This document shows, in pieces, positions 1 through 18,704 of a stretch of DNA of 19,839 nt. The DNA lies in IMG/VR virus record IMGVR_UViG_2778261687_000006, positions 1 through 19,839 of that record; one strand, 5' to 3'. A model generated the notes under the pieces. That model ran no database searches, had not been told where the DNA came from, and was given only the letters and a program-made list of their open reading frames with translations. The DNA is from a virus. Its lineage: Duplodnaviria; Heunggongvirae; Uroviricota; Caudoviricetes. The translations under genes were made by a program, and so were the position numbers. Every line of letters starts with the position of its first letter. The stretch's first letter is position 1.

Positions 1-195
1 TTAATTATTCTGCTGATTTTCTTCCATCTCTGCTTCTGCTGCCAGTGATTCAATTTTGTCTGCGAATATTGCTGACAGCGTTGCAAATTCAGCATCAGTG
101 ACAGCGGGAATTGGAACAAACCTGATCCCACTATGTGCAAGCATGTTTGCAGTTTCAAGGCATTTCCTTAAATCTGCAGGTGATGCCCTGTTCAT
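1..195 (-). CDS. Hypothetical small phage protein (about 64 aa); start ATG overlaps the stop of the upstream methyltransferase gene (ATGA)
   Basis: ORF track frame 1..315; internal ATG at 193-195 overlaps the TGA of the 192..842 gene, suggesting translational coupling. The longer 315 start would overlap the methyltransferase by about 120 nt. No family recognised. Confidence 0.4.
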   Translation of the reverse strand: MNRASPADLRKCLETANMLAHSGIRFVPIPAVTDAEFATLSAIFADKIESLAAEAEMEENQQNN

Positions 196-842
196 GCTGC
201 ACGCTCCCGTCCCTGGTTGTCTGTTGGTGACAGCGGAGCATTGCTGAATGCATTTGTTAATCCGCCAATATCCAACGCGTATCCTGGGTGTAGTTGCACG
301 GCCGGGTCTTCGCACTGATTACCCCAAACATCGAAGCCATGAGACGACTGGCGGGCGAACAGTTCAATGCGAGAAACATCGCCTAACAATTGCACAAGTT
401 TTTCACGAACGACATCTGGTTTTCTTGAATGCTCAAGCCGCGGTGCGGTAAATGACTGAACGATCCCTGCATTAATGCGCGTAGGTAGTTTTCCCTTAAC
501 TGCAAACAGGCAATCTTCACTATTGGCGCGAGTCATGTGCCCCATACCCATAACCAGTTTATCTGGTTGTCGACTACCACATTTTATCCACGTGAAGCCC
601 TTCATGGTCATCAGACGGAATCCCCAGGCTTCAACAACTTTTAGTGCTTCGAGTGGTTGTGTTGGCACCCACCACATGGCCAACAGACAGTTTTCACCGG
701 CCAAATCCCACACAGGAAGGCGGCAGATATCCAGCACACTCATAACCGGATATTTAAAACCGGCACCGCGATTACCATCTGCGGCTTTGTCCCGGTATAC
801 CCAGGGTGGATCTGCATAGATTAGTGTGTATTTCTTAGTCAT
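192..842 (-). CDS. MT-A70 family DNA N6-adenine methyltransferase (phage orphan methylase)
   Basis: 216 aa ORF with the catalytic DPPW motif in context LIYADPPWVY near the N-terminus, typical of MT-A70/Dam-like phage methyltransferases. No restriction endonuclease partner adjacent. Confidence 0.85.
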   Translation of the reverse strand: MTKKYTLIYADPPWVYRDKAADGNRGAGFKYPVMSVLDICRLPVWDLAGENCLLAMWWVPTQPLEALKVVEAWGFRLMTMKGFTWIKCGSRQPDKLVMGMGHMTRANSEDCLFAVKGKLPTRINAGIVQSFTAPRLEHSRKPDVVREKLVQLLGDVSRIELFARQSSHGFDVWGNQCEDPAVQLHPGYALDIGGLTNAFSNAPLSPTDNQGRERAA

Positions 843-1134
843 AAACCACCCCGCAACATCCTATGCCGCTATAGTCGCCACGGCGAAGGCCGTTACCTTT
901 TGTGATACATTGGTCCCTGCGAACCGCGATCCTTGCACGCTCAACATCACCAGAAGCAACATCCATACACTGAAGCCAAAGGTGGGCAGCAATGCGGAAC
1001 TGCCCTTTTTTCTCTCTTTCAATCGCGCGTTTTTCGATCTCTATCGCCGCAGGAGTAACGGCAACAACCTTTGAAGGGCTGCGCATTGAAACCTTGTTCA
1101 TGTGATATTTTTCAAGTCGGCTTAACTTTCTCAC
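835..1134 (-). CDS. Hypothetical phage protein; start uncertain (GTG 1134, ATG 1101 or ATG 1086)
   Basis: ORF of 99 codons from the GTG; 3' end overlaps the methyltransferase start by 8 nt. AAGG lies 6 nt upstream of the ATG at 1086. No recognisable domain. Confidence 0.4.
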   Translation of the reverse strand: MRKLSRLEKYHMNKVSMRSPSKVVAVTPAAIEIEKRAIEREKKGQFRIAAHLWLQCMDVASGDVERARIAVRRDQCITKGNGLRRGDYSGIGCCGVVYD

Positions 1135-1243
1135 TTAATCCAACCCTCTCTGAAAATTAATGCCAGCAGATAAAGCCATGCTGAAACAGAGGCCAGGAAT
1201 AAGTACCATCCTGACCATTTGCTCCAGAGCCTTAGCAGTACAC

Positions 1244-1492
1244 TCATGCCGCGTTGCTCACAGGACGATATACACGTTGCTGAACAGGAGGTTTTTTACC
1301 CTGGAACTCTGCCGGGCTTGCTGCCTGACGTTCATCAAGCCAACGCTCAACTTCATCACGGTTCCATGCGCAGCGTTTGTCAGTGATATACCAGCGTTTA
1401 GGAAATTCCCCTGCGCGCTCCATACGGTCGATAGTGCTCCATGACAGTGGCACCACCGCCAGGAGTTCCTTCTTACCTAATGCACCTTTCAT
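1244..1492 (-). CDS. AlpA-family phage transcriptional regulator / excisionase-like HTH protein
   Basis: 82 aa; segment LLAVVPLSWSTIDRMERAGEFPKRWYITDKRCAWNRDEVERWL matches the AlpA/Xis-like HTH pattern (helix ... AGEFP ... W..E...W). RBS GAGAGG 6 nt upstream of the ATG. Confidence 0.7.
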   Translation of the reverse strand: MKGALGKKELLAVVPLSWSTIDRMERAGEFPKRWYITDKRCAWNRDEVERWLDERQAASPAEFQGKKPPVQQRVYRPVSNAA

Positions 1493-1541
1493 AAATACCT
1501 CTCTTGGTTGCAGTGCGGCGCGTGTGGCGCCGCGGTGGTGG

Positions 1542-2483
1542 TTACATAGATGTTTCGTTTAATTCTTCCCGACGAACGCTGTAAACGTCGGTGGCTTTTG
1601 CCAGCAGTTCGTCATCATCTGAAAGTTTTTGTGCAATGTATTTGTAAGCCTTATCCAGTTCGGAGACAGTGCTGTAATTCATCGCTGCGCTGGTAAAGGC
1701 CATCAGCATTTCTTCTGGATCACGGCTATCCGATTTACGCGTTTGCTCATCAGGCTTTTTCGCTGGTTTAGCGTTGATCAGACTGTTCATTCCCGCAGCA
1801 GTGGTCGTTTGCGGAGTAATGTCTCGCTCAACGCGCGGTGCCGTTTCCTGTAATTCGTCTGGGGTGTAGACGCCCATGATTACGTCAGGACAGTGCAGGC
1901 GAGACCAGCGTTTTGTCGCAAGGTATGCGAGTTGTTGTTTCGGATCACTGGCCCAAAGTGTGGAGTTTCTTACCTGTGCTTGAGACAGCATTAACTCAAG
2001 CACTCGAGGTTGATCCTCGCCCTTCATGGTTGCCCATACGCGAACACCGCAGCCTTCTTCGTCTTTTAGAGTCCAGCCTGGTGCGATATATGGATTGCCG
2101 TTTTTGGATGTTTTCTCAACAAACTTACCGATCACGCGTTCCCACGGCCCGAACCACTCGTAGTTGATGCGATCTTTTGTTGGCGACATCGTTGAGATAA
2201 CTGCGTTTACTAATTGGGCTTCATAACCTAGCGTGCCGTTCACAACATGGGTTTTCTGAGCCACGGCAAACGGGTTCATTCCCCACTGCGCAGCCTGCAT
2301 TGCCACGGCCATGCAATCAGCTGGTTTCCCGGCGAGGTGCGCCGGTACCGTTACGCGGCTTTGCGCCATTACCTCGGCGAATTTCATCAGTTGGTTCAAG
2401 CCGTCTGGGCTGAAAATAGTTGCAGCAGTTCCAGCGATTGCTGTGTCTACTGGTGCGTTGATGTTTGCGATGTCGTTGCTCAT
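1542..2483 (-). CDS. RecT/Redbeta-superfamily single-strand annealing protein (phage recombinase)
   Basis: About 313 aa from the ATG at 2481-2483, which overlaps the TGA of the upstream exonuclease gene. Motifs WGMNPF and ERDITP resemble the lambda Bet / RecT family as I recall it. Paired with an exonuclease. Confidence 0.8.
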   Translation of the reverse strand: MSNDIANINAPVDTAIAGTAATIFSPDGLNQLMKFAEVMAQSRVTVPAHLAGKPADCMAVAMQAAQWGMNPFAVAQKTHVVNGTLGYEAQLVNAVISTMSPTKDRINYEWFGPWERVIGKFVEKTSKNGNPYIAPGWTLKDEEGCGVRVWATMKGEDQPRVLELMLSQAQVRNSTLWASDPKQQLAYLATKRWSRLHCPDVIMGVYTPDELQETAPRVERDITPQTTTAAGMNSLINAKPAKKPDEQTRKSDSRDPEEMLMAFTSAAMNYSTVSELDKAYKYIAQKLSDDDELLAKATDVYSVRREELNETSM

Positions 2484-3301
2484 ATGTACATATCCTGTTT
2501 GCGTGCCCACTCAGGGCGTTTAATGATTTCCACACCGCCCCATTCATCATTGATGCGGCATTCGTGATAGGTATTCAGATCCCGGCGGAACAGAGCGTGC
2601 CCGGCATCGACATCCTGCGCATCCAGCTCGAACACGCGTACCGGATACCGACCACAATCAATGCTTTCGCTCACGGCAAGAAAGAAAAAACCATGCGGCT
2701 GACCAGTAACCCTCATTGCGCCTTCGCGGTACATTGCGTCCTGCACGTGGTAGCGGAATTCCTCGATGTGGCGTGCAAAACGGTCCATATCTGCAACCTT
2801 TTTCACGTCGACGATCACGTTGTGCTCGTTCAGCCATTTGTCTGGACGAATTCGGCACAACTCACCCGTCTCTTCATCGTTCCAGTACATTGATGCTTCG
2901 CAGTAACCAGGTGCTTCCAACATCCAGCGTGCCGCCGGGTGAGCCATTGCGCTATCACGCATCAGCTCCAGTTTCCGCCACTGCTCGGCATCAAGTACCG
3001 TAATCCCCATATCCGCCACATCACGAAGAAATGCCTCTTCGTCAGCTTTACCTTGTTTCGTCCGACGATCGAATTTCGGTGAAACAATGAAGCGTTTGTC
3101 GAACTCTCTAGGCTCCAGAAGCAGACAGTGCAATGCGGTTCCCATATCCAGTGCAGACTTTTTCTCTTCGTCTTCTGGTGCTGCCTGAACCCATTTAAGA
3201 AGCGCCGGATTCTTGGCAACCATGTCCAGTTGCGACTTACTCACGCCGTCACCGGCGTGGTAGTCCTCATTGCTGATGTCGAAATAGATGCCAGTATTCA
3301 T
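2480..3301 (-). CDS. Phage PD-(D/E)XK exonuclease (YqaJ-like viral recombinase nuclease)
   Basis: 273 aa; N-terminal ISNEDYHAGDGVSKSQLD and a D...E.K-like core (RIRPDKW ... IVDVKKV), typical of YqaJ/lambda-Exo-like nucleases found upstream of RecT. Gene overlaps both neighbours. Confidence 0.8.
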   Translation of the reverse strand: MNTGIYFDISNEDYHAGDGVSKSQLDMVAKNPALLKWVQAAPEDEEKKSALDMGTALHCLLLEPREFDKRFIVSPKFDRRTKQGKADEEAFLRDVADMGITVLDAEQWRKLELMRDSAMAHPAARWMLEAPGYCEASMYWNDEETGELCRIRPDKWLNEHNVIVDVKKVADMDRFARHIEEFRYHVQDAMYREGAMRVTGQPHGFFFLAVSESIDCGRYPVRVFELDAQDVDAGHALFRRDLNTYHECRINDEWGGVEIIKRPEWARKQDMYI

Positions 3302-3504
3302 AACTTAACCTTGTATTCGTTCTGCTTGTTGGAACGGGTTCCATCGTGGAAATATATTGCGCTCCTGGTTACCTCTACCCATTTGCGACGTTCAAGCTCA
3401 GCGATGAACCAAGAAACCTTCGATCTTGAGATACCAAGAATCTTTGCCATATCTCGGATGCTGTGTTTTCCACCTCGCAGCAATGAGAGGAGTGTTGGTT
3501 TCAT
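3298..3504 (-). CDS. Small HTH / winged-helix DNA-binding protein
   Basis: 68 aa; HSIRDMAKILGISRSKVSWFIAELERRKWVEV looks like a helix-turn-helix. Start ATG 3502-3504 overlaps the stop of the upstream gene; stop overlaps the exonuclease start. Confidence 0.5.
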   Translation of the reverse strand: MKPTLLSLLRGGKHSIRDMAKILGISRSKVSWFIAELERRKWVEVTRSAIYFHDGTRSNKQNEYKVKL

Positions 3505-3800
3505 GCCGCGTCCCTCTGCCCATCAAGCTGATCAGCCAGATCCCAGCGGGCGATAATTGCCATTGCCTCGCGCCGGTAGGCATCCATTAGTTCTTCGAAC
3601 TCAGGGCTGTCTTTAGCGGCCTCCAGTACTTCCTGGCGAACGCCTTTAACTGTTACAACGTCGAAAGTTGATGCCAGTTGATGAAGCCGGATACTCTCAA
3701 TCAGTTCAACTTGTCGGTCATATAGCTGTTCTGACAGACGGTAGTCCTTGTCGAATGCCAGCATGATTTTTTGAAGATTTTTCTGCTGATTAACGTTCAT
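3501..3800 (-). CDS. Hypothetical early phage protein (99 aa)
   Basis: ORF in the 3501..3815 frame; preferred start is the ATG at 3798-3800 (MNVNQQ...), preceded by GGAGG at a good spacing. No family recognised. Confidence 0.5.
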   Translation of the reverse strand: MNVNQQKNLQKIMLAFDKDYRLSEQLYDRQVELIESIRLHQLASTFDVVTVKGVRQEVLEAAKDSPEFEELMDAYRREAMAIIARWDLADQLDGQRDAA

Positions 3801-3802
3801 TA

Positions 3803-3955
3803 TCAGCCCTCCCATATCTCGTTATCGTTGGCCACATCGCGAGCTTCTTTGCTGACGAAAGCCCACTTAATGCCTTCCTGTAAGGTGCGGAACTTCCAGC
3901 TCATGAATCCGCATGCAGTAACGCAGTACCAACCGTTGATGATTTTCCACTGCAT
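3803..3955 (-). CDS. Small 50-aa ORF, first gene of the leftward early operon; not in the ORF track
   Basis: Hand translation MQWKIINGWYCVTACGFMSWKFRTLQEGIKWAFVSKEARDVANDNEIWEG; GAGG 9 nt upstream; stop TGA 3803-3805 lies 2 nt from the next start (TGATAATG). Confidence 0.3.
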   Translation of the reverse strand: MQWKIINGWYCVTACGFMSWKFRTLQEGIKWAFVSKEARDVANDNEIWEG

Positions 3956-3974
3956 AACTTGTTACCTCGGTCTG

Positions 3975-3989
3975 TTACCGTTTAGGTAA
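3975..3989. promoter_or_regulatory. Dyad operator-like site TTACCGTTTAGGTAA
   Basis: Inverted half-sites TTACC / GGTAA with a 5-bp spacer, overlapping the start of the leftward transcript. Confidence 0.5.
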
Positions 3990-4017
3990 TAATTATGCGT
4001 ATGTGGTTTGATGTCAA
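3989..4017 (-). promoter_or_regulatory. Candidate leftward early promoter (pL-like): -35 TTGACA at 4012-4017 (minus strand), -10-like TAATTA near 3989-3994
   Basis: Perfect TTGACA on the minus strand, about 16 bp spacer, A/T hexamer; flanked by dyad sites at 3975-3989 and 4037-4051. Confidence 0.4.
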
Positions 4018-4036
4018 TAGATATGAGTTAAAAAAA

Positions 4037-4051
4037 TTACCCGTTAGGTAA
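4037..4051. promoter_or_regulatory. Dyad operator-like site TTACCCGTTAGGTAA
   Basis: Same TTACC-N5-GGTAA dyad, upstream of the pL-like -35. Confidence 0.5.
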
Positions 4052-4060
4052 TCGAATAGG

Positions 4061-4086
4061 CAATAAAAAAGCCGCCATAAGGCGGC
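4061..4086 (-). terminator. Rho-independent terminator for the repressor-like gene
   Basis: On the minus strand: GCCGCC-ttat-GGCGGC hairpin followed by TTTTTTATTG, directly downstream of the stop of the 4109..4693 gene. Confidence 0.7.
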
Positions 4087-4108
4087 TTACTTACTGAAAA
4101 ATATGGTT

Positions 4109-4693
4109 TTATTGTTTGTTTTTTTCGTTCTGGTTGATGACAAATTCAATGTAACTTTCGATCTTTGCTTTCTCGGTTTCGGGTAACAATGCGTAGCGCG
4201 AGCGATCATAGTTGATGGTCGCAGGGTCGTGCGGGTGAATCAGTAATTCATAGCCGTGACGCCCGAATGCGGATGCAACATTCTCCAGGGTGGAAATGGA
4301 AACGCTGACCTCATTGTTTAACAGGCGGCTGATTGTCACCTGGGCGACGCCGGATGCGCGGTGTAGTTTTCCCTGCGTTGAAAGGTCGCGGCTTTCGCTC
4401 ATCCAGCGTTCCAGGTTGTGAGCCGCCAACTGACCAATGTCGCTTGGGCCGACAGGCTGAAAACCTTCCTGAGAAAGCGAGCGATCGATATCAAGCCAGT
4501 TACGGGGTTTATTGGCGGCAGCTTCAATTTTTCGTGCAACCTGGTCGCCGATAACCTTCTTGCCAAGAGCCCAGCGGTTTACCAGATTTGCCTGAGTTCC
4601 AAGTTTTTCAGCCATCCGCGTCTGAACACCATTGAATTCACGGTCGATCAAGTCGTTGAGATTTTGCCTGCGGACGTCCTGGATACTTTTCAT
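4109..4693 (-). CDS. Phage repressor-like protein with two XRE-type HTH domains, no peptidase S24 domain evident
   Basis: 194 aa; two HTH-like segments (TRMAEKLGTQANLVNRWALGKKVIGDQVARKIEAA and LHRASGVAQVTISRLLNNEVSVSISTLENVASAFG). Divergent from a Cro-like gene with operator repeats between. No Ala-Gly/Ser/Lys autocleavage signature seen. Confidence 0.65.
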   Translation of the reverse strand: MKSIQDVRRQNLNDLIDREFNGVQTRMAEKLGTQANLVNRWALGKKVIGDQVARKIEAAANKPRNWLDIDRSLSQEGFQPVGPSDIGQLAAHNLERWMSESRDLSTQGKLHRASGVAQVTISRLLNNEVSVSISTLENVASAFGRHGYELLIHPHDPATINYDRSRYALLPETEKAKIESYIEFVINQNEKNKQ

Positions 4694-4748
4694 TTTCTGG
4701 AAAATCGCCTCATATCTGAATCAGAAGATGATTCAATTTAAAGCAATA

Positions 4749-4822
4749 TTACCCAACAGGTAAATGCACCTCACGGGTAACTATCCTTGATTTTTGTTAC
4801 CTTATAGGTGAATATTTATTAT
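4749..4822. promoter_or_regulatory. Immunity-region operator/promoter cluster: three dyad sites (4749-4763, 4766-4780 degenerate, 4797-4811) and a PR-like promoter (-35 TTGTTA 4794-4799, -10 TATTAT 4817-4822)
   Basis: Three TTACC-N5-GGTAA-type sites spaced about 17-30 bp apart between the divergent genes; the third sits in the spacer of a plus-strand promoter 26 bp upstream of the Cro-like ATG. Confidence 0.5.
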
Positions 4823-4847
4823 CTGAAATAAATATCAGGCAATAGCT

Positions 4848-5078
4848 ATGAGCGATAACGGACATTTCGATTTCAAAAAGCACTGGCTTGCACTTACTCC
4901 GGATGAGCGTGAAGCCTTCGCACAGGAAGCCGGAACGACGAGTCACTATATCCAGACTCACTTAACAGGTAAGCGCAAAATGCCAGGTAAGGTATTGATG
5001 GATGGGCTTTTTAAAGCCTGTAAATCAAGACAATGGCTGCGCTCAAAAGCAGAACTGGCATACTTCTTCTACTCATGA
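4848..5078 (+). CDS. Cro-like small HTH regulator
   Basis: 76 aa, divergent from the repressor-like gene; HTH-like segment TPDEREAFAQEAGTTSHYIQTHLTGKRKMP; followed directly by an intrinsic terminator. Confidence 0.55.
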   Translation: MSDNGHFDFKKHWLALTPDEREAFAQEAGTTSHYIQTHLTGKRKMPGKVLMDGLFKACKSRQWLRSKAELAYFFYS

Positions 5079-5100
5079 TATCCAGCCACAACCCTCTGTA

Positions 5101-5122
5101 GACCGCCATCCGGCGGTCTTTT
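5101..5122 (+). terminator. Rho-independent terminator after the Cro-like gene
   Basis: GACCGCC-atcc-GGCGGTC hairpin followed by TTTT. Confidence 0.6.
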
Positions 5123-5133
5123 CATATCTATTC

Positions 5134-5148
5134 GTACCTCAAAGGTAA
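5134..5148. promoter_or_regulatory. Dyad operator-like site GTACCTCAAAGGTAA
   Basis: TTACC-N5-GGTAA family member just after the Cro terminator; an ATATGGTT box follows at 5160-5167. Confidence 0.45.
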
Positions 5149-5161
5149 TAAAAAACCAAAT

Positions 5162-5422
5162 ATGGTTGATCTTTTTTTTGTGTCAGCACAAAATAACCGT
5201 AATCCCAATACCAATAACAGGGCTTACCATGGAAATCATTACACGTATTTCGCTGTGATGCTCGCCACCGGAGAGATGGAACTGCACGAAGTGAAAGGTT
5301 TCTGGACCGACGACGCCAGGGTGAAAACCAAAGTCGCCGCAGATCAGTATCCGTTCCGAATCATCGGGGTAACGGTTAAACCAAAGAAAGCAGGTGGTGG
5401 CTGGAACATCGAAGAGTTCTGA
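5162..5422 (+). CDS. Hypothetical small protein; start codon uncertain (ATG 5162, or internal ATGs giving about 48-55 aa)
   Basis: ORF track entry; the first ATG lies inside the conserved ATATGGTT box and lacks an RBS. Coding status doubtful. Confidence 0.3.
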   Translation: MVDLFFVSAQNNRNPNTNNRAYHGNHYTYFAVMLATGEMELHEVKGFWTDDARVKTKVAADQYPFRIIGVTVKPKKAGGGWNIEEF

Positions 5423-5483
5423 ATCGACGATCTTTTTAGTTATCAATGTAATCAATAAGTTATGTGGATAAGCGAGGGTAAAG

Positions 5484-6197
5484 ATGGAAAGTAATATCAA
5501 AGGGTTAGTTTCCGCCGGGCATGAGATGGCTTCGGAACTGAAAGCAGAATGTGGTGCCGTTGATATGCGCAGTGTGGCAAAGCTGATCAGCGATTTGGCA
5601 ACGCAACTGGAAGTGCAACTGGTGCGTGCTAATGCGCTGGCCGAAGACCACCAGAGAGCCATTGAGTCAATTAAACAGGCTGATTCGGCTGTTAAGTTGG
5701 CACACGAGAAGTTTTCGGCGCTGGCTGCGGAGAATGCAAGACTGAAGGCCGGGGCTATGTATTTCTCATATGGCTCTGAATTTAGTTTCGAGTGTCACAA
5801 AACTGCTGAGGAGGCTATCGCTGCTGCTGAGGCTGCAATTGACGACTATAGAGGCGATGCTTGCGATGGATGGAGCGAAGAGGTCGAAAGCATTTGCTGG
5901 GGGGTAATTATTCAGCAGGCAACCAAGGTCGGTGAACGCAAGAAGAGGAAATGCGACAGAGTATCACCATGGATTGAAAGAGTTTGTGATTATGAGCTTC
6001 GACCTAATGTCGAAACCCCAGCCACCGATGCTTTCCTTGCTGAAGTTCGGGCGCAGGGGGTGGATATGGCTCGTAACGCGATGATTGATTTTGTTGATGG
6101 TGAAGTTGGGCCAAACAAGAACGTTCCGGGGCTGATTAGAGGCGCAGAGATATGCGTAAGTATTGCTGAACAGCTTCGCAAAGGAGGCAACCAGTGA
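5484..6197 (+). CDS. Hypothetical phage early protein with coiled-coil N-terminus (possibly Ea22-like)
   Basis: 237 aa; RBS GAGGG before the ATG; heptad-like Ala/Glu-rich N-terminal region; stop overlaps the start of the next gene. Confidence 0.55.
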   Translation: MESNIKGLVSAGHEMASELKAECGAVDMRSVAKLISDLATQLEVQLVRANALAEDHQRAIESIKQADSAVKLAHEKFSALAAENARLKAGAMYFSYGSEFSFECHKTAEEAIAAAEAAIDDYRGDACDGWSEEVESICWGVIIQQATKVGERKKRKCDRVSPWIERVCDYELRPNVETPATDAFLAEVRAQGVDMARNAMIDFVDGEVGPNKNVPGLIRGAEICVSIAEQLRKGGNQ

Positions 6198-6613
6198 GCG
6201 AAATTAATTACCAGGCACTGCGTGAGGCGGCGGAACGTGCAATTCCAGCAATGGAACGCCTGTTAATGTTGCCAGCTGATGATGATTTGTTAAGTGAACA
6301 GGAACTTAAAGATTACGGTGTGGATATTGATGCGCTCAACGCCTTCAAATTTCTGGCCGGACCAGAAACCGTGCTGGCACTACTGGATGAACGGGAAAGG
6401 AACCAGCAATACATCAAATCCCGCGATCAGGAGAACGAGGATATTGCGCTAACGGTTGGGAGGCTGCTAATCGAAAACGGCCGGCTTGTTGCCGATACGC
6501 TACGCCACTTAGCTGATAACGAAATCGACTCTGATTATTTTGCTATCACCTCAACGAATGAGAACGGTACTGAAATTGATCATGAGATGGCTATTACTGA
6601 GCCGCCAGGATGA
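6194..6613 (+). CDS. Ead/Ea22-like family phage protein (recollection-based assignment)
   Basis: 139 aa; GTG start with strong RBS AAGGAGG 6 nt upstream; N-terminus MSEINYQALREAAERA and VLALLDERERNQQ resemble lambdoid Ea22-like proteins as I remember them. Confidence 0.55.
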   Translation: MSEINYQALREAAERAIPAMERLLMLPADDDLLSEQELKDYGVDIDALNAFKFLAGPETVLALLDERERNQQYIKSRDQENEDIALTVGRLLIENGRLVADTLRHLADNEIDSDYFAITSTNENGTEIDHEMAITEPPG

Positions 6614-6761
6614 TGCACGTGTGCGCTGGCGTATAAAATCGATCAGCAGAAAACGGTGCGGTAAGTGCGGCGAGAGAGTTCCTGTTAATTCATGCCCGTG
6701 TAATGGTGACTCGCAATGCTGGGTGAATAAAGGCTGGCATGAAACGAAATTAATAGTGTGA
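6540..6761 (+). CDS. Possible small Cys-rich (zinc-ribbon-like) protein; coding status uncertain
   Basis: ORF overlaps the 3' end of the previous gene in another frame; C-terminal CGKCGERVPVNSCPCNGDSQCW has CxxC ... CxC spacing. Its stop codon lies inside the GTGACATGTCAC palindrome. Confidence 0.25.
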   Translation: MLSPQRMRTVLKLIMRWLLLSRQDDARVRWRIKSISRKRCGKCGERVPVNSCPCNGDSQCWVNKGWHETKLIV

Positions 6762-6769
6762 CATGTCAC
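6758..6769. repeat. Perfect 12-bp palindrome GTGACATGTCAC, copy 1
   Basis: Read directly; overlaps the stop codon of the 6540..6761 ORF, upstream of the terS terminator. Confidence 0.9.
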
Positions 6770-6810
6770 GAGTAGATTATGCATGATGAATTTGATGGGT
6801 TTTGAATACT

Positions 6811-6837
6811 GCCGCCAACTATGGCGGCTTTATTTTG
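6811..6837 (+). terminator. Terminator-like hairpin upstream of terS
   Basis: GCCGCC-aactat-GGCGGC followed by TTTATTTTG; same stem sequence as the 4061-4086 terminator. Confidence 0.5.
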
Positions 6838-6843
6838 CATGGT

Positions 6844-6872
6844 ACTATTACCACAACGGTAACTATTACCAC
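6844..6872 (+). repeat. Tandem direct repeat ACTATTACCAC (6844-6854 and 6862-6872) immediately upstream of terS
   Basis: GGTACTATTACCACAACGGTAACTATTACCACGG read directly; includes an inverted GGTAA-cta-TTACC arrangement. Confidence 0.8.
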
Positions 6873-6879
6873 GGTGGTT

Positions 6880-7476
6880 ATGATGCCTGCTGAACCTAAA
6901 ACCTATAAACGCAAATCAACGCAATTTAAGCCACTAACAGCAATGCAGGAGGCTTATTGCCAGTCATACATCAAAACGCCTGAAAACCAGACTCAGGCAG
7001 CGATTAACGCAGGATTTTCCCCAAATACAGCGGCAGTTAAAGCCAGTGTCATGATGCGCGATGAACGCATTCAAAAACGGATTGCCGAGTTGATGGAGGA
7101 GCGCAACAAACGAATGCGCGTCAGTGCTGATTACGTTCTCATGCGCCTGGTGGAGATCGACCAGATGGACGTGATTGATATCCTCAACGACGATGGGAGC
7201 CTTAAGCCAATCCGCGAGTGGCCGAAAATCTGGCGCACTACGCTTAGTGGCTTTGATCTGTCGTCGACCATCATGAACATGAACGAGGATTCGATAGAGA
7301 CAATCCTCAAAAAAATTAAATGGCCTGACAAGGTGAAGAACCTTGAGCTGATTGGTAAGCATGTTGATGTCAACGCGTTCAAAGAACGTCTGGATGTTAA
7401 TGTGAATGTGACAATTGCTGATCGCATAGCAGCAGCCAGGAAGCGACTCAAAGAACGTCAGGATGGTAATCAGTGA
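6880..7476 (+). CDS. Terminase small subunit (TerS)
   Basis: About 198 aa from the ATGATG at 6880; positioned immediately upstream of and overlapping the large terminase gene; basic helical N-terminal region (TAVKASVMMRDERIQKRIAEL) consistent with a DNA-binding small terminase. The track's TTG-start extension translates a direct-repeat region. Confidence 0.65.
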   Translation: MMPAEPKTYKRKSTQFKPLTAMQEAYCQSYIKTPENQTQAAINAGFSPNTAAVKASVMMRDERIQKRIAELMEERNKRMRVSADYVLMRLVEIDQMDVIDILNDDGSLKPIREWPKIWRTTLSGFDLSSTIMNMNEDSIETILKKIKWPDKVKNLELIGKHVDVNAFKERLDVNVNVTIADRIAAARKRLKERQDGNQ

Positions 7477-8948
7477 CAGATACAGCGTTATCTCCTGAAG
7501 AGCAGTTGATCGAGGATATTGCAGGGTTCACTCACGATCCGCTTGGCTATGCCCTCTATGCGTTCCCGTGGGGGGAAGAGGGGACTGAACTGGCACATGC
7601 TACCGGTCCACGTCAGTGGCAGGCTGATGCGTTCCGAGAGATACGTGATCACCTGCAGAATCCAGAGACGCGCTATCAGCCGCTTATGCTGGCACGTGCT
7701 TCTGGTCACGGTATTGGTAAATCCGCATTCATCTCAATGCTGATCAACTGGGGCATGTCCACTTGCGAGGATTGTAAGGTCGTGGTGACCGCCAATACCG
7801 ACAACCAGCTACGAACGAAGACCTGGCCGGAAATTATCAAGTGGTCGAACCTTGCTATCACGAAAGACTGGTTCACCTGTACCGCTACCGCGATGTACAG
7901 CAATGATCCTGGGCACGACAAGCGGTGGCGAGCTGACGCAATCCCCTGGTCTGAGCACAATACTGAGGCGTTCGCCGGACTACACAACGAGCGCAAACGT
8001 ATCATCGTGGTATTCGATGAAGCGTCGAACATTGCGGATCTGGTGTGGGAAGTTGCCGAGGGTGCGCTTACGGACGAAGACACTGAGATTATCTGGGTGG
8101 CGTTCGGAAACCCGACGCGTAATACCGGACGTTTCCGAGAATGTTTCCGCAAATATAAACACCGCTGGAAAACTGCGCAGATTGACAGCCGGACGGTTGA
8201 AGGCACTAACAAACAGCAGTTGCAGAAATGGGTTGATGACTACGGGGAAGACAGCGACTTCGTTAAAATCCGTGTGCGTGGCATATTCCCTGATGCATCT
8301 GAATTGCAGTTTATCCCTACCGGTCTTACTGACGAGGCAATGAAACGGGTGGTAACCGCTGCGCAGGTGGCACATGCTCCGGTGATAATCGGCGTTGACC
8401 CGGCATACTCCGGCGTTGATGACGCGGTGATATACCTGCGGCAGGGGCTGCACAGTAAGGTGCTGTGGACTGGCAACAAGACCACCGACGATCTGATTAT
8501 GGCGAAGCGTATCGCTGACTTTGAAGACCAGTATCAGGCCGACGCGGTGTTCATCGACTTCGGTTACGGTACTGGCCTGAAGTCAATCGGTGACGACTGG
8601 GGGCGCACATGGCAACTTGTTCCGTTCGGTGGCGCGTCTACTGACCCGCAGATGCTCAACAAGCGTGGGGAGATGTTCAACTCATGTAAGACATGGCTGA
8701 GGCTGGGCGGGATGCTGGATGACCAGGAAACAGCGGACGACCTGTCGACGGCAGAGTACAAAGTTCGCGTGGACGGTAAAATCGTTATCGAACCGAAGGA
8801 AGATATCAAAGAGCGACTTGGGCGTTCGCCGGGGAAAGGCGATGCGCTATTGCTGACGTTTGCTTTCCCTGTGTCGAAGCGCCTGCGAATTCCCGGTCAG
8901 CAGAACCAGCAAGGCAAGGCCATCACAGATTACGACCCGTTTGCGTGA
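7473..8948 (+). CDS. Terminase large subunit (TerL), ATPase plus nuclease
   Basis: 491 aa; Walker A-like ASGHGIGKSAF, Walker B-like RIIVVFDEASN, C-terminal acidic nuclease-like motif VIIGVDPAYSG. GTG start overlaps the terS stop (GTGA). Confidence 0.85.
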   Translation: MTDTALSPEEQLIEDIAGFTHDPLGYALYAFPWGEEGTELAHATGPRQWQADAFREIRDHLQNPETRYQPLMLARASGHGIGKSAFISMLINWGMSTCEDCKVVVTANTDNQLRTKTWPEIIKWSNLAITKDWFTCTATAMYSNDPGHDKRWRADAIPWSEHNTEAFAGLHNERKRIIVVFDEASNIADLVWEVAEGALTDEDTEIIWVAFGNPTRNTGRFRECFRKYKHRWKTAQIDSRTVEGTNKQQLQKWVDDYGEDSDFVKIRVRGIFPDASELQFIPTGLTDEAMKRVVTAAQVAHAPVIIGVDPAYSGVDDAVIYLRQGLHSKVLWTGNKTTDDLIMAKRIADFEDQYQADAVFIDFGYGTGLKSIGDDWGRTWQLVPFGGASTDPQMLNKRGEMFNSCKTWLRLGGMLDDQETADDLSTAEYKVRVDGKIVIEPKEDIKERLGRSPGKGDALLLTFAFPVSKRLRIPGQQNQQGKAITDYDPFA

Positions 8949-8949
8949 T

Positions 8950-9690
8950 TTATTGCTTATTTTTCACGGCTTCAGCAATCATTCTCTCAGCCTGTGATGT
9001 ATATGTTTTTCGCAAGGGTTCATGGCCCATATGCAATACGATACCTTCCTTTTCTTTTTCCTTTAATTCTTGTATGAGATTATTTATTTTGGCCTCCCTA
9101 TCTTCAAGCATTCTGGCGGACTTTTCTGCCTCAATCTTTAACGCTGCAGCCACTGATTGCATGTTTTCCAGCTTCTTATTCAATTCCAAAACCTTATCGG
9201 AGAGCCTATCTCTTTCCGCCGTTAGCTCACCCATCCTGGCCTGTGACTCCGTAATTCTTTCCTTCATAGCCTGTATGTCTTTTTCGGCGCCAGTCTTAAC
9301 TTTGTCGTATGTCACATCGTGCTTTGCCTTCAGGCGCTGCAGGCGTGTGGCGCGATGAATGCGCTTGGCCTTCCGGTGGTTCTCTATCGAATCGTAATTA
9401 TCAAGAGGTTTGGCTTGCCACTTTGAAATCACGTTGTTGATCCAGGGCATGCCGCCGCACAGGATTATTGCTGAAACACATGGGAATGCTAATACCGTTT
9501 TCCAACTGCTATTACTGGAAATGTAGGTGATCTTGTCGATGATGCTGGAGTCGCTGAGGAGTAAGTATAAAATCGACTTCCAGTTAAAGGCGCACCATGA
9601 CAGTGCGAACGCTCCAAACACTGGATTTCTGACCCTTTGCGCAGCGGTATTAACGGTTGAAGATAGGTATTCTTTAAGTGATTCAAGCAT
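8950..9690 (-). CDS. AT-rich cargo gene: membrane-anchored coiled-coil protein of unknown function (candidate superinfection-exclusion or abortive-infection factor)
   Basis: 246 aa; two hydrophobic segments near the N-terminus, then a long charged heptad-like region (KERITESQARMGELTAERDRLSDKVLELNKKLENMQ). AAGGG RBS. Convergent with terL with a 1-nt gap. Visibly AT-rich compared with neighbours. Confidence 0.55.
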   Translation of the reverse strand: MLESLKEYLSSTVNTAAQRVRNPVFGAFALSWCAFNWKSILYLLLSDSSIIDKITYISSNSSWKTVLAFPCVSAIILCGGMPWINNVISKWQAKPLDNYDSIENHRKAKRIHRATRLQRLKAKHDVTYDKVKTGAEKDIQAMKERITESQARMGELTAERDRLSDKVLELNKKLENMQSVAAALKIEAEKSARMLEDREAKINNLIQELKEKEKEGIVLHMGHEPLRKTYTSQAERMIAEAVKNKQ

Positions 9691-9720
9691 GTCCAGGCCC
9701 TTTTAGGTTTTTTTCTGATT

Positions 9721-9735
9721 CTACCTTTAAGGTAA
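9721..9735. promoter_or_regulatory. Dyad operator-like site CTACCTTTAAGGTAA in the promoter of the 8950..9690 gene
   Basis: Lies in the spacer of a candidate minus-strand promoter (ATGACC ... TAGAAT) about 40 bp upstream of the start codon. Confidence 0.45.
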
Positions 9736-9757
9736 TCTTCGGTCATTATGAAAAACG

Positions 9758-9803
9758 TATCCCTATGAGGGGATAATGTCGTTGATATCCTCTGATGAGG
9801 ATA
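9758..9803. promoter_or_regulatory. Two tandem dyads of a second type, TATCC-N8-GGATA (9758-9775 and 9786-9803)
   Basis: TATCCctatgaggGGATA and TATCCtctgatgaGGATA, 28 bp apart, upstream of the 8950..9690 promoter. Confidence 0.4.
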
Positions 9804-9829
9804 AAACAAAGCCAGCTCATCGGCTGGCT
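9801..9829 (-). terminator. Rho-independent terminator after the 9850..10221 gene
   Basis: On the minus strand: AGCCAGC-cgatgag-GCTGGCT hairpin followed by TTGTTTTAT, about 20 nt past the stop codon. Confidence 0.5.
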
Positions 9830-9833
9830 GTTT

Positions 9834-9845
9834 GTGACATGTCAC
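9834..9845. repeat. Perfect 12-bp palindrome GTGACATGTCAC, copy 2
   Basis: Read directly; 5 nt beyond the stop of the 9850..10221 gene, before its terminator hairpin. Confidence 0.9.
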
Positions 9846-9849
9846 GGTG

Positions 9850-10221
9850 TTATTGCTCGCTTAACTTCTGCTTCAGCAAGTAACCTTCAAGCATCCAGAT
9901 TTTGTTTACAGCATTCTGCCGGGCAATCTTCCGACCAATTTCCGCATCAAAGTTTTCCGGGCTTGCACAGGCGCTCTCTCCGGTGACGGTGAAGCCGTTG
10001 CGCAGCACCAGAACGCAGAACGTCAGCAGAGAAAGTGATTCGTGCGGCTGGTAGTTTACCTCTCCGCCAGTATGTTTCGCTTTTATGGCTACGCCAAAGA
10101 CACCATCTTCTGCTGTGAAATATGCCTCCTGAGCAATAATGCTCTCGATATGGTCTGGCGTAACGCGCGGCGCGGCTAAACCTTTAGCCTGAATTTCAGA
10201 TTCAATGTCTTTGTCACTCAT
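9850..10221 (-). CDS. Conserved hypothetical phage protein (123 aa)
   Basis: ORF with RBS AAGGTGA; sequence feels familiar from enterobacterial prophages but I cannot name the family with confidence. Confidence 0.55.
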   Translation of the reverse strand: MSDKDIESEIQAKGLAAPRVTPDHIESIIAQEAYFTAEDGVFGVAIKAKHTGGEVNYQPHESLSLLTFCVLVLRNGFTVTGESACASPENFDAEIGRKIARQNAVNKIWMLEGYLLKQKLSEQ

Positions 10222-10424
10222 AGTCTAATCTCACCTTAAAAAAATGCCCGGCGAACCGGGCGAACTGGAAGCAATGAGTTATGCCTTCCGTGGCTGTACT
10301 GGTTTACAGCATGAAGTCATCGCAATGGCGTCCTGCTGTAAAAAGGGCGGTGATAGTCCTTCAAGGGAAACCATCACCGCCAAGCCCCTGGAACTTCTGG
10401 CATCACGGTCCTTAGGCGTGATTC

Positions 10425-10501
10425 TGGCGTGGCATGCAGGATTCGAACCTGCGACCAACCGCTTAGAAGGCGGTTGCTCTGTCCAACTGAGCTAATGCCA
10501 C
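10425..10501 (-). tRNA. tRNA-Arg (anticodon UCU), phage-encoded
   Basis: Hand-folded cloverleaf on the minus strand: acceptor GTGGCAT/ATGCCAC, D-arm GCTC-AGTTGGACA-GAGC, anticodon arm ACCGC-CTTCTAA-GCGGT (U33, anticodon TCT, A37), variable loop TGGTC, T-arm GCAGG-TTCGAAT-CCTGC, discriminator G, encoded CCA. Acceptor and anticodon stems differ from host argU as I recall it. Confidence 0.85.
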
Positions 10502-10823
10502 AACGCTGAGAGCACTTAGCCTGTTAAGGCGCCACACTTTGTCGCGGCTCCATAAATGCTCTCATCGTTGCACCCTCGTCTCTTCCGAGGCGTCACACCG
10601 AATCGCCGGGATGGTGAATCCCCGTGCGCGGAATAAAACCGCTCGACTTGCACATTCCGGCTACCTGGTTCGTTTGCCCGAGCAAGGGAGGGTGCCCCTT
10701 AAACGTATCCAGACCGCTATCGTCGCATGTGCCATACGCCGTACTGCTCAACATAAAAGCTCACTCCACCTGTTCAATTTAACGACAAGCCAGTCAGGTT
10801 AGTAACCGGAATGAACTCTTTTG

Positions 10824-10838
10824 TTACCTGAAAGGTAA
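10824..10838. promoter_or_regulatory. Dyad operator-like site TTACCTGAAAGGTAA
   Basis: Lies beside a minus-strand TTGACA (10855-10860) and about 70 bp upstream of a -10-like GATAAT (10899-10904) for the plus-strand operon. Confidence 0.45.
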
Positions 10839-10928
10839 TAATTTGCGCATTAAATGTCAACTGTCTACGACAAGTAAATCATATGTGGTTAAATTGGTGA
10901 TAATTTAATTGCGTACGGAGTCATTGAT

Positions 10929-11186
10929 ATGTGCATGGGTAGCTCACCATCAGTGCCTGCAACACCAGAAGTTCAGGCAGCACCACAGGAGCAGGATGCC
11001 GCCGTTGTTGATGCCCGCGACGAAGAAACTCGTCGCCGTCGCGCTGCTGCTGGTCGTAGTTCTACGCTGCTTGAGGCGGTGCAGAACCGCATGAACGATA
11101 TGTTCAATAAGTCGAATCTCTACCAGTCGCTGCCGGTGTTCAGCGGTATCTGCGTGTTAACTACTCCGTCGCAACTGGCCCACTAA
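10929..11186 (+). CDS. Hypothetical protein (85 aa); may be part of a frame-disrupted larger gene
   Basis: RBS GGAG 8 nt upstream of the ATG. A second frame stays open from 11111 to 11267 without any start codon and translates to protein-like sequence. Confidence 0.4.
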   Translation: MCMGSSPSVPATPEVQAAPQEQDAAVVDARDEETRRRRAAAGRSSTLLEAVQNRMNDMFNKSNLYQSLPVFSGICVLTTPSQLAH

Positions 11187-11279
11187 CGGCTGGCGAATTC
11201 ACTGCTGGTATCAGTCTTGATGTTGATGCCAATACGCCGTATCCGATCCGCTCAAAAGTAACTGGTTAAGGTGATATCG

Positions 11280-11630
11280 ATGTCAGGTGAGAAACCAAGA
11301 TACCGCGTTCTGCGCCTCTCTCATATCCATAACACTCTGTGGCCGGAGGGGGCAGAAATCGAATACGAAGGTGAGCCTGGTAGCGCACTGGAACCTGTTA
11401 ACGATGCAGCCAGACAGGCAAAAGCAAAGGTAGCAGGAAAGGTGTCAATGGCAGCAACCAGTACCAAAATCATCAACGATGTGTCAGATGATGGTGAGCT
11501 GGATAAGCTCCGTGAAGAGTACGAATTGCTCTTTAACGAGAAGCCACACCATAACGCCAAAGCCGAAACGCTCCGCGAGAAGATCGCAGATAACCGGTTC
11601 TGGTATTCAGCGTGGAACATGGAAAGGTGA
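11280..11630 (+). CDS. Hypothetical protein (116 aa)
   Basis: ATG at 11280 with RBS GGTGA 6 nt upstream; acidic, helical-looking sequence. The +1 frame stays open across its last 150 nt. Confidence 0.5.
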   Translation: MSGEKPRYRVLRLSHIHNTLWPEGAEIEYEGEPGSALEPVNDAARQAKAKVAGKVSMAATSTKIINDVSDDGELDKLREEYELLFNEKPHHNAKAETLREKIADNRFWYSAWNMER

Positions 11631-11679
11631 ATTAACGAGAAGTGTTTTCCTGTTTAAATCGTTCCCTATCTCGGTGGTT

Positions 11680-12240
11680 ATGCGTCACTGGTCACGCGCT
11701 ATGGGTATGCCGTCTGCTGGTGGGCGTGCGGCATATATTGCGACGTTTATTGCCAGTACGACCATTCTTGGAGCTTTGTCGCAGCAACTTAACGACCTTG
11801 CGTCTGGTCGTAATCCTCGCGAGATGACAGGAGAAGATGCCGCAAAATTCTGGCTTGGTGCTCTATTGAAAGGTGGTGGTCTTGGCCTTTACGGTGACTT
11901 TTTATTGTCAGATCACACTAGGTACGGAAGCGGCGCGCTGGCGTCGATGCTTGGCCCGGTGGCTGGTCTGGTTGATGACGTAGTGAAGATTGCTCAGGGC
12001 ATACCGTTAAATGCTGTGGAAGGGAAGAGTGAGCAGACTGGTGGTGATCTGGTGAAGCTGGGGAAAGGTTTGATGCCAGGTGCGAATCTCTGGTACTTGA
12101 AGGCGGCTCTCGATCACATGATCTTTAACCAGATGCAGGAGTATTTTTCACCAGGCTATTTGCGTAAAATGGAGCAACGTTCGAAGAAAGAGTTTAACCA
12201 GACATACTGGTGGCGACCTCAGGATGTCACTCCGCAATAA
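11680..12240 (+). CDS. Hypothetical protein with Gly-rich hydrophobic segments; start poorly defined (ATG 11680 or GTG 11674), possible frameshift fusion with the upstream ORF
   Basis: Long open frame 11479..12240, protein-like only after about 11640; no well-spaced RBS at the candidate starts. Confidence 0.45.
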   Translation: MRHWSRAMGMPSAGGRAAYIATFIASTTILGALSQQLNDLASGRNPREMTGEDAAKFWLGALLKGGGLGLYGDFLLSDHTRYGSGALASMLGPVAGLVDDVVKIAQGIPLNAVEGKSEQTGGDLVKLGKGLMPGANLWYLKAALDHMIFNQMQEYFSPGYLRKMEQRSKKEFNQTYWWRPQDVTPQ

Positions 12241-12249
12241 GGATGAGAA

Positions 12250-12390
12250 ATGATTGCTTTTATTCTTGTTGTATTTGTGCTTGTTGCCCTTGGCGTTATG
12301 AATCGTAAATGTATCATTGAAGACGGTGAATTTGCTGTAGCAGTTGTTTTGATATTATCTGGTGTAGCAGGGTACATAGGTTTGTCATAG
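12250..12390 (+). CDS. Small hydrophobic peptide (46 aa, two predicted membrane segments); not in the ORF track
   Basis: Hand translation MIAFILVVFVLVALGVMNRKCIIEDGEFAVAVVLILSGVAGYIGLS; RBS AGGA upstream; stop TAG at 12388-12390. Confidence 0.35.
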   Translation: MIAFILVVFVLVALGVMNRKCIIEDGEFAVAVVLILSGVAGYIGLS

Positions 12391-12397
12391 CTTGAGT

Positions 12398-12409
12398 GTG
12401 ACATGTCAC
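12398..12409. repeat. Perfect 12-bp palindrome GTGACATGTCAC, copy 3 (extended form TGTGACATGTCACA)
   Basis: Read directly; in the convergent gap between the 12250..12390 ORF and the 12434..12691 gene. Confidence 0.9.
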
Positions 12410-12433
12410 AGGCCGCTTTCGCGGCCCTTAAAT

Positions 12434-12691
12434 TTACCGGATTTGTTTTCGTAATTGTTCGGCACAATAGTCGAGATGTGTTTGCAGATCCTGCATAGAC
12501 ATCTGTGAGCTGGTGACGTAGTTAATCAGTGCAGTCAGTTCGGCAAGTGGGCCATCGACATTAAATCCATCCTTATCGAGATCCCGGAGTAATTTCATCA
12601 AGTGCGATCCCTCCACCAGTGACCTGACGCCTCCCGGCGTGTGAATCCTTTCGGTAAATCCGTCTTCCAGTGGATAGTGATACTGCTGCAT
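12434..12691 (-). CDS. Hypothetical protein (85 aa from the ATG at 12691)
   Basis: ORF track 12434..12757 with a GTG at 12757; the internal ATG at 12689-12691 has GGAG about 8 nt upstream. Divergent from the tailspike gene. Confidence 0.45.
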   Translation of the reverse strand: MQQYHYPLEDGFTERIHTPGGVRSLVEGSHLMKLLRDLDKDGFNVDGPLAELTALINYVTSSQMSMQDLQTHLDYCAEQLRKQIR

Positions 12692-12767
12692 CTTATCTTC
12701 TCCATGCAATAACTGTATATTTATGCAGTAGCAAATAATTTGTTTGCTATCCAGCACGTTTTGCGAA

Positions 12768-12782
12768 TCACCTGAAAGGTAA
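12768..12782. promoter_or_regulatory. Dyad operator-like site TCACCTGAAAGGTAA
   Basis: In the divergent intergenic region between the 12434..12691 gene and the tailspike gene; followed by the ATCCATATGTGGTT box (12809-12822) and a -10-like TAGAAT (12833-12838). Confidence 0.45.
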
Positions 12783-12886
12783 TATCTGTTCGTATTTATG
12801 GTTTATCTATCCATATGTGGTTTTTCAGGTAATAGAATAACCGGATATGCGGCGCAACGGGTGCTGCGACTATCTGGAGATTTAAC

Positions 12887-15571: not shown

Positions 15572-15576
15572 AAAAT

Positions 15577-15600
15577 GCCCCGTAGAGGGGCTTTTTTTTT
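15577..15600. terminator. Bidirectional rho-independent terminator shared by the tailspike and acyltransferase genes
   Basis: GCCCC-gtaga-GGGGC hairpin flanked by AAAAA upstream and TTTTTTTTT downstream. Confidence 0.75.
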
Positions 15601-16588: not shown

Positions 16589-16641
16589 TTTAATATTTAT
16601 CCAATATTTTTAATGGGTTCCACAATCATTAACTACAATAT

Positions 16642-16656
16642 ATACCCATAAGGTAA
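16642..16656. promoter_or_regulatory. Dyad operator-like site ATACCCATAAGGTAA
   Basis: Between the acyltransferase and lysis genes; followed by ATCCATATATGGTT (16685-16699) and a -10-like TATGAT (16706-16711). Confidence 0.45.
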
Positions 16657-16752
16657 TTTAGTTAAGAGTTATCAGAGGTAAACTTATCCATATATGGTTT
16701 ATTGTGTATGATGGACTTACCAACTAAGGGGGTTCATTATGCACAGTAAACG

Positions 16753-17166: not shown

Positions 17167-17461
17167 TCTGCTTTTACTTATTGCCAATGCAGTTATTTGT
17201 ACTGGCATAGCAATTCGCGTTGTCACATTCCGGCGTAACGGATCTCAACATCGAAGATGGGGAGGGTGGCTTGCTTATTTCCTTATTGTTGCTGCGGCCA
17301 GTATTCCTGTTCGTGTCGTCTATGCAATCTGGTTACGCACGCCAATGGCTGTGGATTTATCTGAGGTTATTATCAACGCTGTCATGCTTGCCGCTGTTAT
17401 TAAAACACACGGTAACGTTGTTCAGATTTTCAAAATATCGAGGTCTAAACATGGAGATTAA
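17153..17461 (+). CDS. Second holin/antiholin-like small membrane protein
   Basis: 102 aa with three hydrophobic segments; RBS GGGAG; overlaps both neighbours, immediately upstream of the endolysin. Confidence 0.5.
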
Positions 17462-18574: not shown

Positions 18575-18704
18575 TTTCCGGTGACGGTATATAAAACGGT
18601 ACTAGAAAAATTAAGTTTTGGAAAAATGTTATCACTCAATTGGTTATGATTGTCGTAAATAATTGAGTGGGAATGATTTGACCCTGCACTATGAATGAAC
18701 AAAA

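Follow-up and report, generated by a model that had tools for sequence, protein, structure and literature searches.

In phage phiV10 (NC_007804.2; Uetakevirus), genes p32–p39 encode, in order and on one strand, a DUF1382 protein, a methyltransferase, a PerC-like protein, a 38-residue membrane protein, an AlpA-like protein, RecT, a RecE-like protein, p38 and p39. Beyond p39 lie a terminator and then a repressor gene, annotated in phiV10 as having two helix-turn-helix motifs and as similar to the putative repressor of epsilon15; the epsilon15 counterparts of phiV10 genes are known through cross-references in the phiV10 annotation notes. Other useful points of reference are the PL operon of lambda, the RecE/RecT pair of the Rac prophage, and the MT-A70 methyltransferases encoded by gp5 of the Stx2a phage phiPA8 (M.EcoPA8orf6770P) and by its close relative M.EcoGV (Escherichia coli O104:H4). 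We analyzed a stretch of caudoviral DNA (the window; 19,839 nucleotides, positions 1 to 19,839 of IMG/VR record IMGVR_UViG_2778261687_000006) whose left end carries an operon of the same kind, with an orphan MT-A70 methyltransferase gene and an exonuclease/recT pair.

We consider it highly probable that, in this region, a phiV10/epsilon15-like (Uetakevirus) prophage carries its repressor-controlled early-left (PL-type) operon. The 4.1 kb of the operon are 98% identical in nucleotide sequence to phiV10 p32–p39, and about 15 other phage records match likewise; gene order, strand and overlaps are the same as in phiV10, and the terminator and repressor gene follow beyond the p39-like gene in the window as they do there. 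The module also occurs in 566 of 5426 complete E. coli genomes, in which the Prokaryotic Genome Annotation Pipeline (PGAP) assigns identical gene names. It is thus an already known, annotated, common and ordinary module, and as a discovery it carries little weight: phiV10, related phage records and hundreds of E. coli genomes already carry annotations of it. The locus differs from that of phiV10 in having an additional 68-residue MarR-like gene that separates p38 from the exonuclease gene and in encoding the exonuclease and RecT as two genes, whereas RecE and RecT are fused into one 586-residue open reading frame (ORF) in phiV10; in addition, the window prophage has lost the replication genes and most morphogenesis genes.

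Layout and predicted control of the operon

The operon occupies the minus strand from a promoter at 3989–4017 down to position 1 and comprises 11 consecutive genes by our count, 10 of which are itemized below with coordinates. The predicted sigma-70 promoter (TTGACA, a 17-nucleotide spacer, AATTAT; minus strand, 10 of 12 consensus positions) lies between the terminator of the repressor gene and the first gene of the operon, and is flanked by 2 operator-like dyads of the form TTACC-N5-GGTAA (3975–3989 and 4037–4051). An intrinsic terminator at 4069–4088 (minus strand; 8-bp stem followed by TTTTTAT, −14.9 kcal/mol), annotated as a terminator in phiV10, ends the transcript of a CI-like repressor gene outside the operon (4109–4693, minus strand; HTH_3, PF01381). 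Promoter and terminator were found by consensus scans and the operators by pattern search. In phiV10, Enterobacter phage Tyrion and Salmonella phage SPN1S, the corresponding region holds 2 exact dyads each, 62 bp apart, a spacing kept across 3 host genera. A predicted promoter flanked by operator-like dyads beside a repressor gene is a PL/OL-type arrangement. As in the lambda PL operon, transcription would run leftward from an operator-flanked promoter just past the repressor terminator, into a recombination pair and small accessory genes. The 2 systems differ in that the window has RecE/RecT where lambda has Exo/Bet, in that no N-like protein or boxB-like element was recognized in the window, and in that the integrase gene is not part of the operon but is encoded on the other strand, with the operator dyad recurring at many other genome sites. 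The window contains 11 dyads (at 3975, 4037, 4749, 4797, 5134, 6848, 6866, 9721, 10824, 12768 and 16642), compared with 0.34 expected, so that binding of the CI-like repressor may extend to many sites across the genome. Besides those at OL and OR, there are dyads upstream of terS and elsewhere at scattered spots, with a similar layout in phiV10, Tyrion and SPN1S.

Reading the junctions directly from the sequence revealed start/stop overlaps at 7 of them: 5 ATGA overlaps (195/192, 1247/1244, 2483/2480, 3301/3298 and 3504/3501), one GTGA overlap (1134/1131) and one 8-nucleotide overlap between the perC-like and methyltransferase genes (842/835, ATGACTAA). The only sizeable spacer in the operon is the 49 nucleotides from recT to alpA. 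A preliminary description of this DNA, made from the letters and their ORFs without database searches, had proposed a tightly coupled early-left operon of consecutive minus-strand genes, and both the junctions and the promoter region support a repressor-proximal operon of this type. All start and stop coordinates cited there exist in the sequence, and its domain calls (MT-A70, RecT, PDDEXK/DUF3799, AlpA, PerC and DUF1382) agree with the profile matches. Five of its overlapping junctions (3504/3501, 3301/3298, 2483/2480, 842/835 and 195/192) are indeed overlaps, but the sixth, 3803/3800, is a 2-nucleotide gap (TGA-ta-ATG), in which GGGAGGG is the ribosome-binding site of the ATG at 3800 and which would become an overlap only with an alternative ATG at 3815. 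It also overlooked the 38-residue gene at 1131–1247, and hence 2 overlaps, and drew the limit of the operon at 3504, although the genes run on through 3501–3800 and 3803–3955 to the promoter.

The first gene of the operon (3803–3955, 50 codons; PHROG 898, E = 2e-38) is p39-like and the second (3501–3800, 99 codons; PHROG 856, E = 5e-55) is p38-like; both are annotated in phiV10 and by PGAP, and their products, which gave no Pfam match, belong to PHROGs of unknown function. Next comes the accessory gene for a 68-residue MarR-like winged-helix protein (3298–3504; Pfam MarR_2/HTH_24; "MarR family transcriptional regulator" in PGAP), a cassette fitted exactly between the p38 and exonuclease genes, with an ATGA overlap at each end, that is found in only 7 of 51 close relatives and is absent from phiV10 (blast gap 3302–3496). 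The exonuclease and recT genes are followed by the 5 genes that end the operon. The product of the alpA gene (1244–1492; PF05930, 24.2 bits against a cut-off of 21) is an AlpA-family winged-helix protein that probably serves as an excisionase or as a regulator of transcription (PHROG 66, "excisionase and transcriptional regulator," E = 2e-16). The 38-residue predicted membrane protein (1131–1247; PHROG 17484, E = 5e-25), the equivalent of phiV10 p35, is annotated in phiV10 (p35) and in YDC107_2. The gene for the PerC-family small transcriptional activator (835–1134; PF06069, 30.1 bits; PHROG 868, E = 1e-54) starts with GTG at 1134, preceded by the ribosome-binding site GAGAGGG, with other ATG starts at 1101 and 1086; in Tyrion and SPN1S the annotated start of the PerC-family gene likewise overlaps the upstream gene by 4 nucleotides. 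After the methyltransferase gene (192–842), the last gene (1–195) encodes a 64-residue DUF1382 protein (PF07131, 105.7 bits) that is 49% identical to phiPA8 gp4, which is likewise encoded downstream of the MT-A70 gene; in about half of the close relatives it is swapped for a phosphatase-like gene. All of these genes lie on the minus strand.

In strain R18, the intact prophage adjoins guaA, with the integrase gene immediately left of window position 1. Compared with phiV10, the window prophage is without the DnaT-like and P replication genes and without the genes from portal to tail, that is, most portal, capsid and tail genes (window 5200–12430). It is a deletion derivative, probably a cryptic noninducible remnant, and at least 80% of the window in one place was found in none of the complete E. 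coli genomes searched. A segment without phiV10 counterpart holds a 246-residue ORF (8950–9690, minus strand) with a weak, below-threshold Pfam match only.

The recombination pair and the recT–alpA hairpin

The exonuclease gene (2480–3301, minus strand, 273 codons) encodes a RecE-type PD-(D/E)XK 5′–3′ exonuclease consisting of the nuclease domain only. Residues 12–268 align over 257 residues with E. coli exodeoxyribonuclease VIII (PDB 3H4R, E = 9e-79), the protein corresponds to positions 606–873 of the 877 in NCBIfam PRK09709 and contains the RPD...VDVK sequence, and it matches PF12684 (PDDEXK/DUF3799, 82.5 bits). The adjacent recT gene, which it overlaps by ATGA, encodes a 313-residue RecT single-strand annealing protein (1542–2483, minus strand; PF03837, 151.9 bits; PHROG 561, E = 1e-146); a PDB sequence search with RecT returned no match. 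The matches to 3H4R and PF03837 bear out the RecE-type exonuclease/RecT pair proposed in the preliminary description, and the 2 proteins would make a RecET-type pair with a predicted recombination activity. As in Rac, the nuclease domain is followed immediately downstream by a coupled gene for a RecT-family annealing protein, whereas the long N-terminal part of Rac RecE has no equivalent in the window, where only the C-terminal nuclease domain is encoded. The exonuclease–recT offset in tblastn (2683 to 3501), which in the window produces the ATGA overlap, was the same in 79 of 80 IMG/VR relatives, so that the pair consists of 2 overlapping genes in the window and in these 79. The phiV10 "RecE-RecT fusion" (29722–31482) arises from one additional A in a run of A residues 20 nucleotides before the exonuclease stop, which corresponds to window site 2500–2503, and the fusion may reflect an error in sequencing or a genuine frameshift.

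The spacer from the recT stop to the alpA ribosome-binding site contains a GC-only hairpin (1515–1533, minus strand), with arms at 1515–1521 and 1527–1533, 7 G-C pairs and a 5-nucleotide loop (−15.2 kcal/mol, z = −3.96). No T-run follows it on either strand. A hairpin without a T-tract had thus been correctly described, with coordinates (about 1516–1534) one base off. To survey its variation, we collected 25 distinct variants from 80 relatives; as the first MAFFT alignment of the spacer left 3 sequences out of register, the trimmed hairpins were re-aligned before pairs were counted. The 7-bp stem is intact in 23 of the 25 variants, with 159 of 161 stem cells paired, and the covariation score was reached by none of 500 shuffles. 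In one clade, pair 2 changed from C-G to U-A and in another, pair 5 changed from C-G to G-C, with G-U wobbles at 2 positions, whereas the loops, of 4 to 5 nucleotides, are unrelated in sequence. The flanking CCACCAC is conserved. None of the 25 variants has a U-tract 3′ of the hairpin, where the stem is followed by ACUGCAACC. The hairpin matched no Rfam family, and over positions 1–5200 no Rfam element reached its gathering score; at E ≤ 1, the only hit was a chance Phe-leader match on the cI terminator. A boxB-like element was rejected because the loops are not conserved; as for an intrinsic terminator, the GC-rich stem-loop is present and the U-tract is not, and the hairpin does not resemble one. 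The covariation pattern points to the hairpin probably being an intercistronic mRNA element.

The MT-A70 methyltransferase and its likely target

The 216-residue product of the methyltransferase gene (192–842, minus strand) is a predicted beta-class N6-adenine methyltransferase of the MT-A70 family, in which residues 5–176 match the entire PF05063 profile (1–172 of 172; 77.5 bits against a cut-off of 23.9; PHROG 359, E = 1e-119). Motif IV, DPPW, lies near the N-terminus at residues 11–14 (YADPPW, 9–14), in permuted order, and aligns with the DPPW of Tetrahymena MTA1; in the PDB, the closest entries are those of Tetrahymena MTA1/MTA9 and of METTL3. Among the window ORFs that we scanned, the RecE domain was the only nuclease, with no restriction endonuclease. 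Because there is no cognate nuclease and the neighbors are PerC-family and DUF1382 genes, the enzyme is an orphan and not part of a type II restriction-modification system, which bears out the absence of a cognate nuclease stated in the preliminary description.

The same description called the target specificity unknown, which overlooks a biochemically studied homologue: residues 1–187 are 82.9% identical to M.EcoPA8orf6770P (phiPA8 gp5; E = 2e-123). The 2 proteins share the MT-A70 fold with DPPW, a DUF1382 gene immediately downstream and a position close to the integrase end of an operon that runs leftward. The phages differ, phiPA8 being a lambdoid member of the Sepvirinae and the window prophage a podovirus-type Uetakevirus, and the gene for PNB-2, a 143-residue winged-helix protein, stands in phiPA8 where a PerC-family gene abuts the methyltransferase gene in the window. 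The proteins also part at residue 187, where the alignment ends: the C-terminal tail of the window enzyme (about 29 residues) is unrelated to that of M.EcoPA8orf6770P, and the approximately 27 C-terminal residues of the type found in Shiga toxin-producing E. coli (STEC), proposed as needed for holoenzyme formation, are not present. This distinct tail is conserved as well as the catalytic core between E. coli and Enterobacter phages. No homologue of PNB-2 or PNB-1 was found among the operon proteins (best PNB-2 match, E = 3.1).

The published activities of this group conflict. PMC10810198 reports that M.EcoGV, when overproduced, methylated GATC in vivo, and Table 3 of PMC6602927 lists M.EcoGV as a Dam homologue with GATC specificity. 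M.EcoPA8orf6770P raises spontaneous prophage induction (Gong et al. 2023, PMC10810198); alone, it was nearly inactive on both DNA and RNA, and with the upstream-encoded PNB-2 it forms a 1:1 complex that prefers 16S rRNA in 30S subunits (PMC10810198). The window enzyme should thus not be treated as one of unknown specificity, given an 83% identical relative with published, conflicting activities on GATC DNA and 16S rRNA. Its most likely activity would be a Dam-like N6-adenine methylation of GATC, acting on replicating phage and host DNA after induction, to which we give roughly an even chance. GATC frequency in the window offers no usable signal (73 observed against 94 expected by a trinucleotide-based Markov estimate).

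The gene upstream of the MT-A70 gene varies among relatives (PerC, DUF1317, winged-helix, DndB-like, ASCH-like or another methyltransferase), and some of the relatives' loci show no methyltransferase gene within the sequence fetched; SPN1S and BUCT554, checked in the quest for a methyltransferase-free Uetakevirus, both carry it. With neighbors that vary and with the gene missing from some relatives, the enzyme is, as judged by gene content, movable phage cargo of the M.EcoGV/M.EcoPA8orf6770P group with no fixed partner. In Tyrion (29880–31123), gp30, annotated as a winged-helix protein, is encoded upstream of the MT-A70 gene and gp28, an unannotated 68-residue protein, downstream of it, and in phiPA8 (2851–3282) PNB-2 is encoded upstream. 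A fused PerC and MT-A70 protein cluster (P0003; 297 residues, 3 members, 98% identical to the window proteins) was considered as evidence of a partnership and set aside, as an indel in the 8-nucleotide overlap is the more likely origin.

The preliminary description had proposed comparing the methylomes of the lysogen and a deletion mutant. Because the operon stands behind an operator-flanked promoter and is thus probably silent in the lysogen, that comparison would not discriminate; moreover, a GATC enzyme is invisible in a dam+ host, so that the test would be blind in a dam+ lysogen.

Proposed expression of the operon and competing explanations

In the reading we prefer, the promoter would be silent in the lysogen and would fire on derepression, after which one leftward transcript would span all operon genes from the p39-like gene to DUF1382. 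The overlaps at 7 junctions would favor translational coupling, which should help to co-produce the RecE-domain exonuclease and RecT, together a RecET-type recombination pair. As no antitermination element was identified, read-through past the hairpin is assumed. Tentatively, the hairpin would act on the mRNA as a 3′-exonuclease barrier or as a pause and processing element, so that the recombination genes and the downstream accessory genes would be expressed at different levels.

Several observations weigh against this reading. The promoter and operators are known only as matches to consensus sequences, and no antitermination component or nut-like site was identified, although no search aimed at N-like proteins or nut sites was made. 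With the replication genes and most virion genes gone, the operon may have lost its role in a lytic cycle. The 2 compensatory changes in the hairpin each define one clade and therefore represent 2 events, not many. As for the methyltransferase, purified M.EcoPA8orf6770P alone was nearly inactive on dam− DNA in vitro (PMC10810198), which weakens the GATC assignment, and with a different tail and no PNB-2 in the window, neither published activity can be expected to transfer with certainty.

The hairpin might instead be a DNA-level protein-binding palindrome, or a noncanonical terminator or attenuator that parts 2 transcription units. Its place at a module boundary, a stability equal to that of the cI terminator hairpin and the conserved CCACCAC flank would all suit such a role; we nevertheless regard it as rather unlikely, since the changes keep pairing and not sequence and the loops vary, which argues against sequence-specific recognition of DNA or loop, since the U-tract is lacking throughout the variants, and since a consensus scan downstream found no promoter-like site to restart transcription from alpA through DUF1382. 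For the methyltransferase, the main alternative is that the MT-A70 protein chiefly methylates 16S rRNA and depends for this on a small partner from the operon, be it the PerC-family, DUF1382 or accessory winged-helix protein. The preference of the M.EcoPA8orf6770P holoenzyme for 16S rRNA and 30S subunits (PMC10810198), coupled with the shared core, speaks for it, as do the heteromeric function of all of the nearest solved structures, MTA1/MTA9 and METTL3 (PMC7544214), the small winged-helix genes that abut MT-A70 genes in phiPA8 (4-nucleotide overlap) and Tyrion (11-nucleotide overlap), and the core-like conservation of the clade's tail between E. coli and Enterobacter phages. Yet the operon encodes no recognizable PNB-2 homologue, the changing upstream gene means that PerC is not a conserved partner, DUF1382 is replaced in half or so of the close relatives, and the rRNA claim itself comes from assays of S-adenosylmethionine (SAM) consumption in which the modified base was not identified (PMC10810198, Discussion). 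We judge this reading unlikely.

The winged-helix neighbors of MT-A70 genes in other phages hint at exchangeable nucleic-acid-binding partners. Taken further, small phage MT-A70 proteins could be catalytic modules, with a small exchangeable partner encoded next door deciding between GATC DNA and rRNA as the substrate; here, this partner would be the PerC-family or DUF1382 protein, docking on the conserved clade-specific tail. The chances of this are slim, and if true it would lead to a second, different holoenzyme. Very improbable is the proposal of the preliminary description that the methyltransferase has a novel DNA specificity and that the palindrome GTGACATGTCAC is its regulatory target. 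The palindrome is a perfect one of 12 bp, strongly nonrandom (3 copies, at 6758–6769, 9834–9845 and 12398–12409, against 0.04 expected), and places adenines in a symmetric context. However, it contains no GATC, the reported DNA target of the homologue; its copies number only 3 per genome and stand outside the operon, at operon boundaries by terminators and far from the methyltransferase gene; and the approximately 40 C-terminal residues beyond the MT-A70 domain leave little room for a domain reading 12 bp. The palindrome looks like a conserved intergenic element of another kind.

The 3 sites are syntenic and intergenic in the window, phiV10, Tyrion and SPN1S, 4 phages from 3 host genera. One lies upstream of terS, another follows the terL terminator, and the third, next to a terminator hairpin, comes after the last structural gene; the palindrome is exactly kept at each while the flanks diverge, a pattern that suits such an intergenic element better than a methyltransferase site. 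Together, the U-tract-free hairpin and the 3 invariant palindromes are small unexplained regulatory features of Uetakeviruses that are cheaply testable. The phiV10 and Tyrion records are both linearized inside the palindrome.

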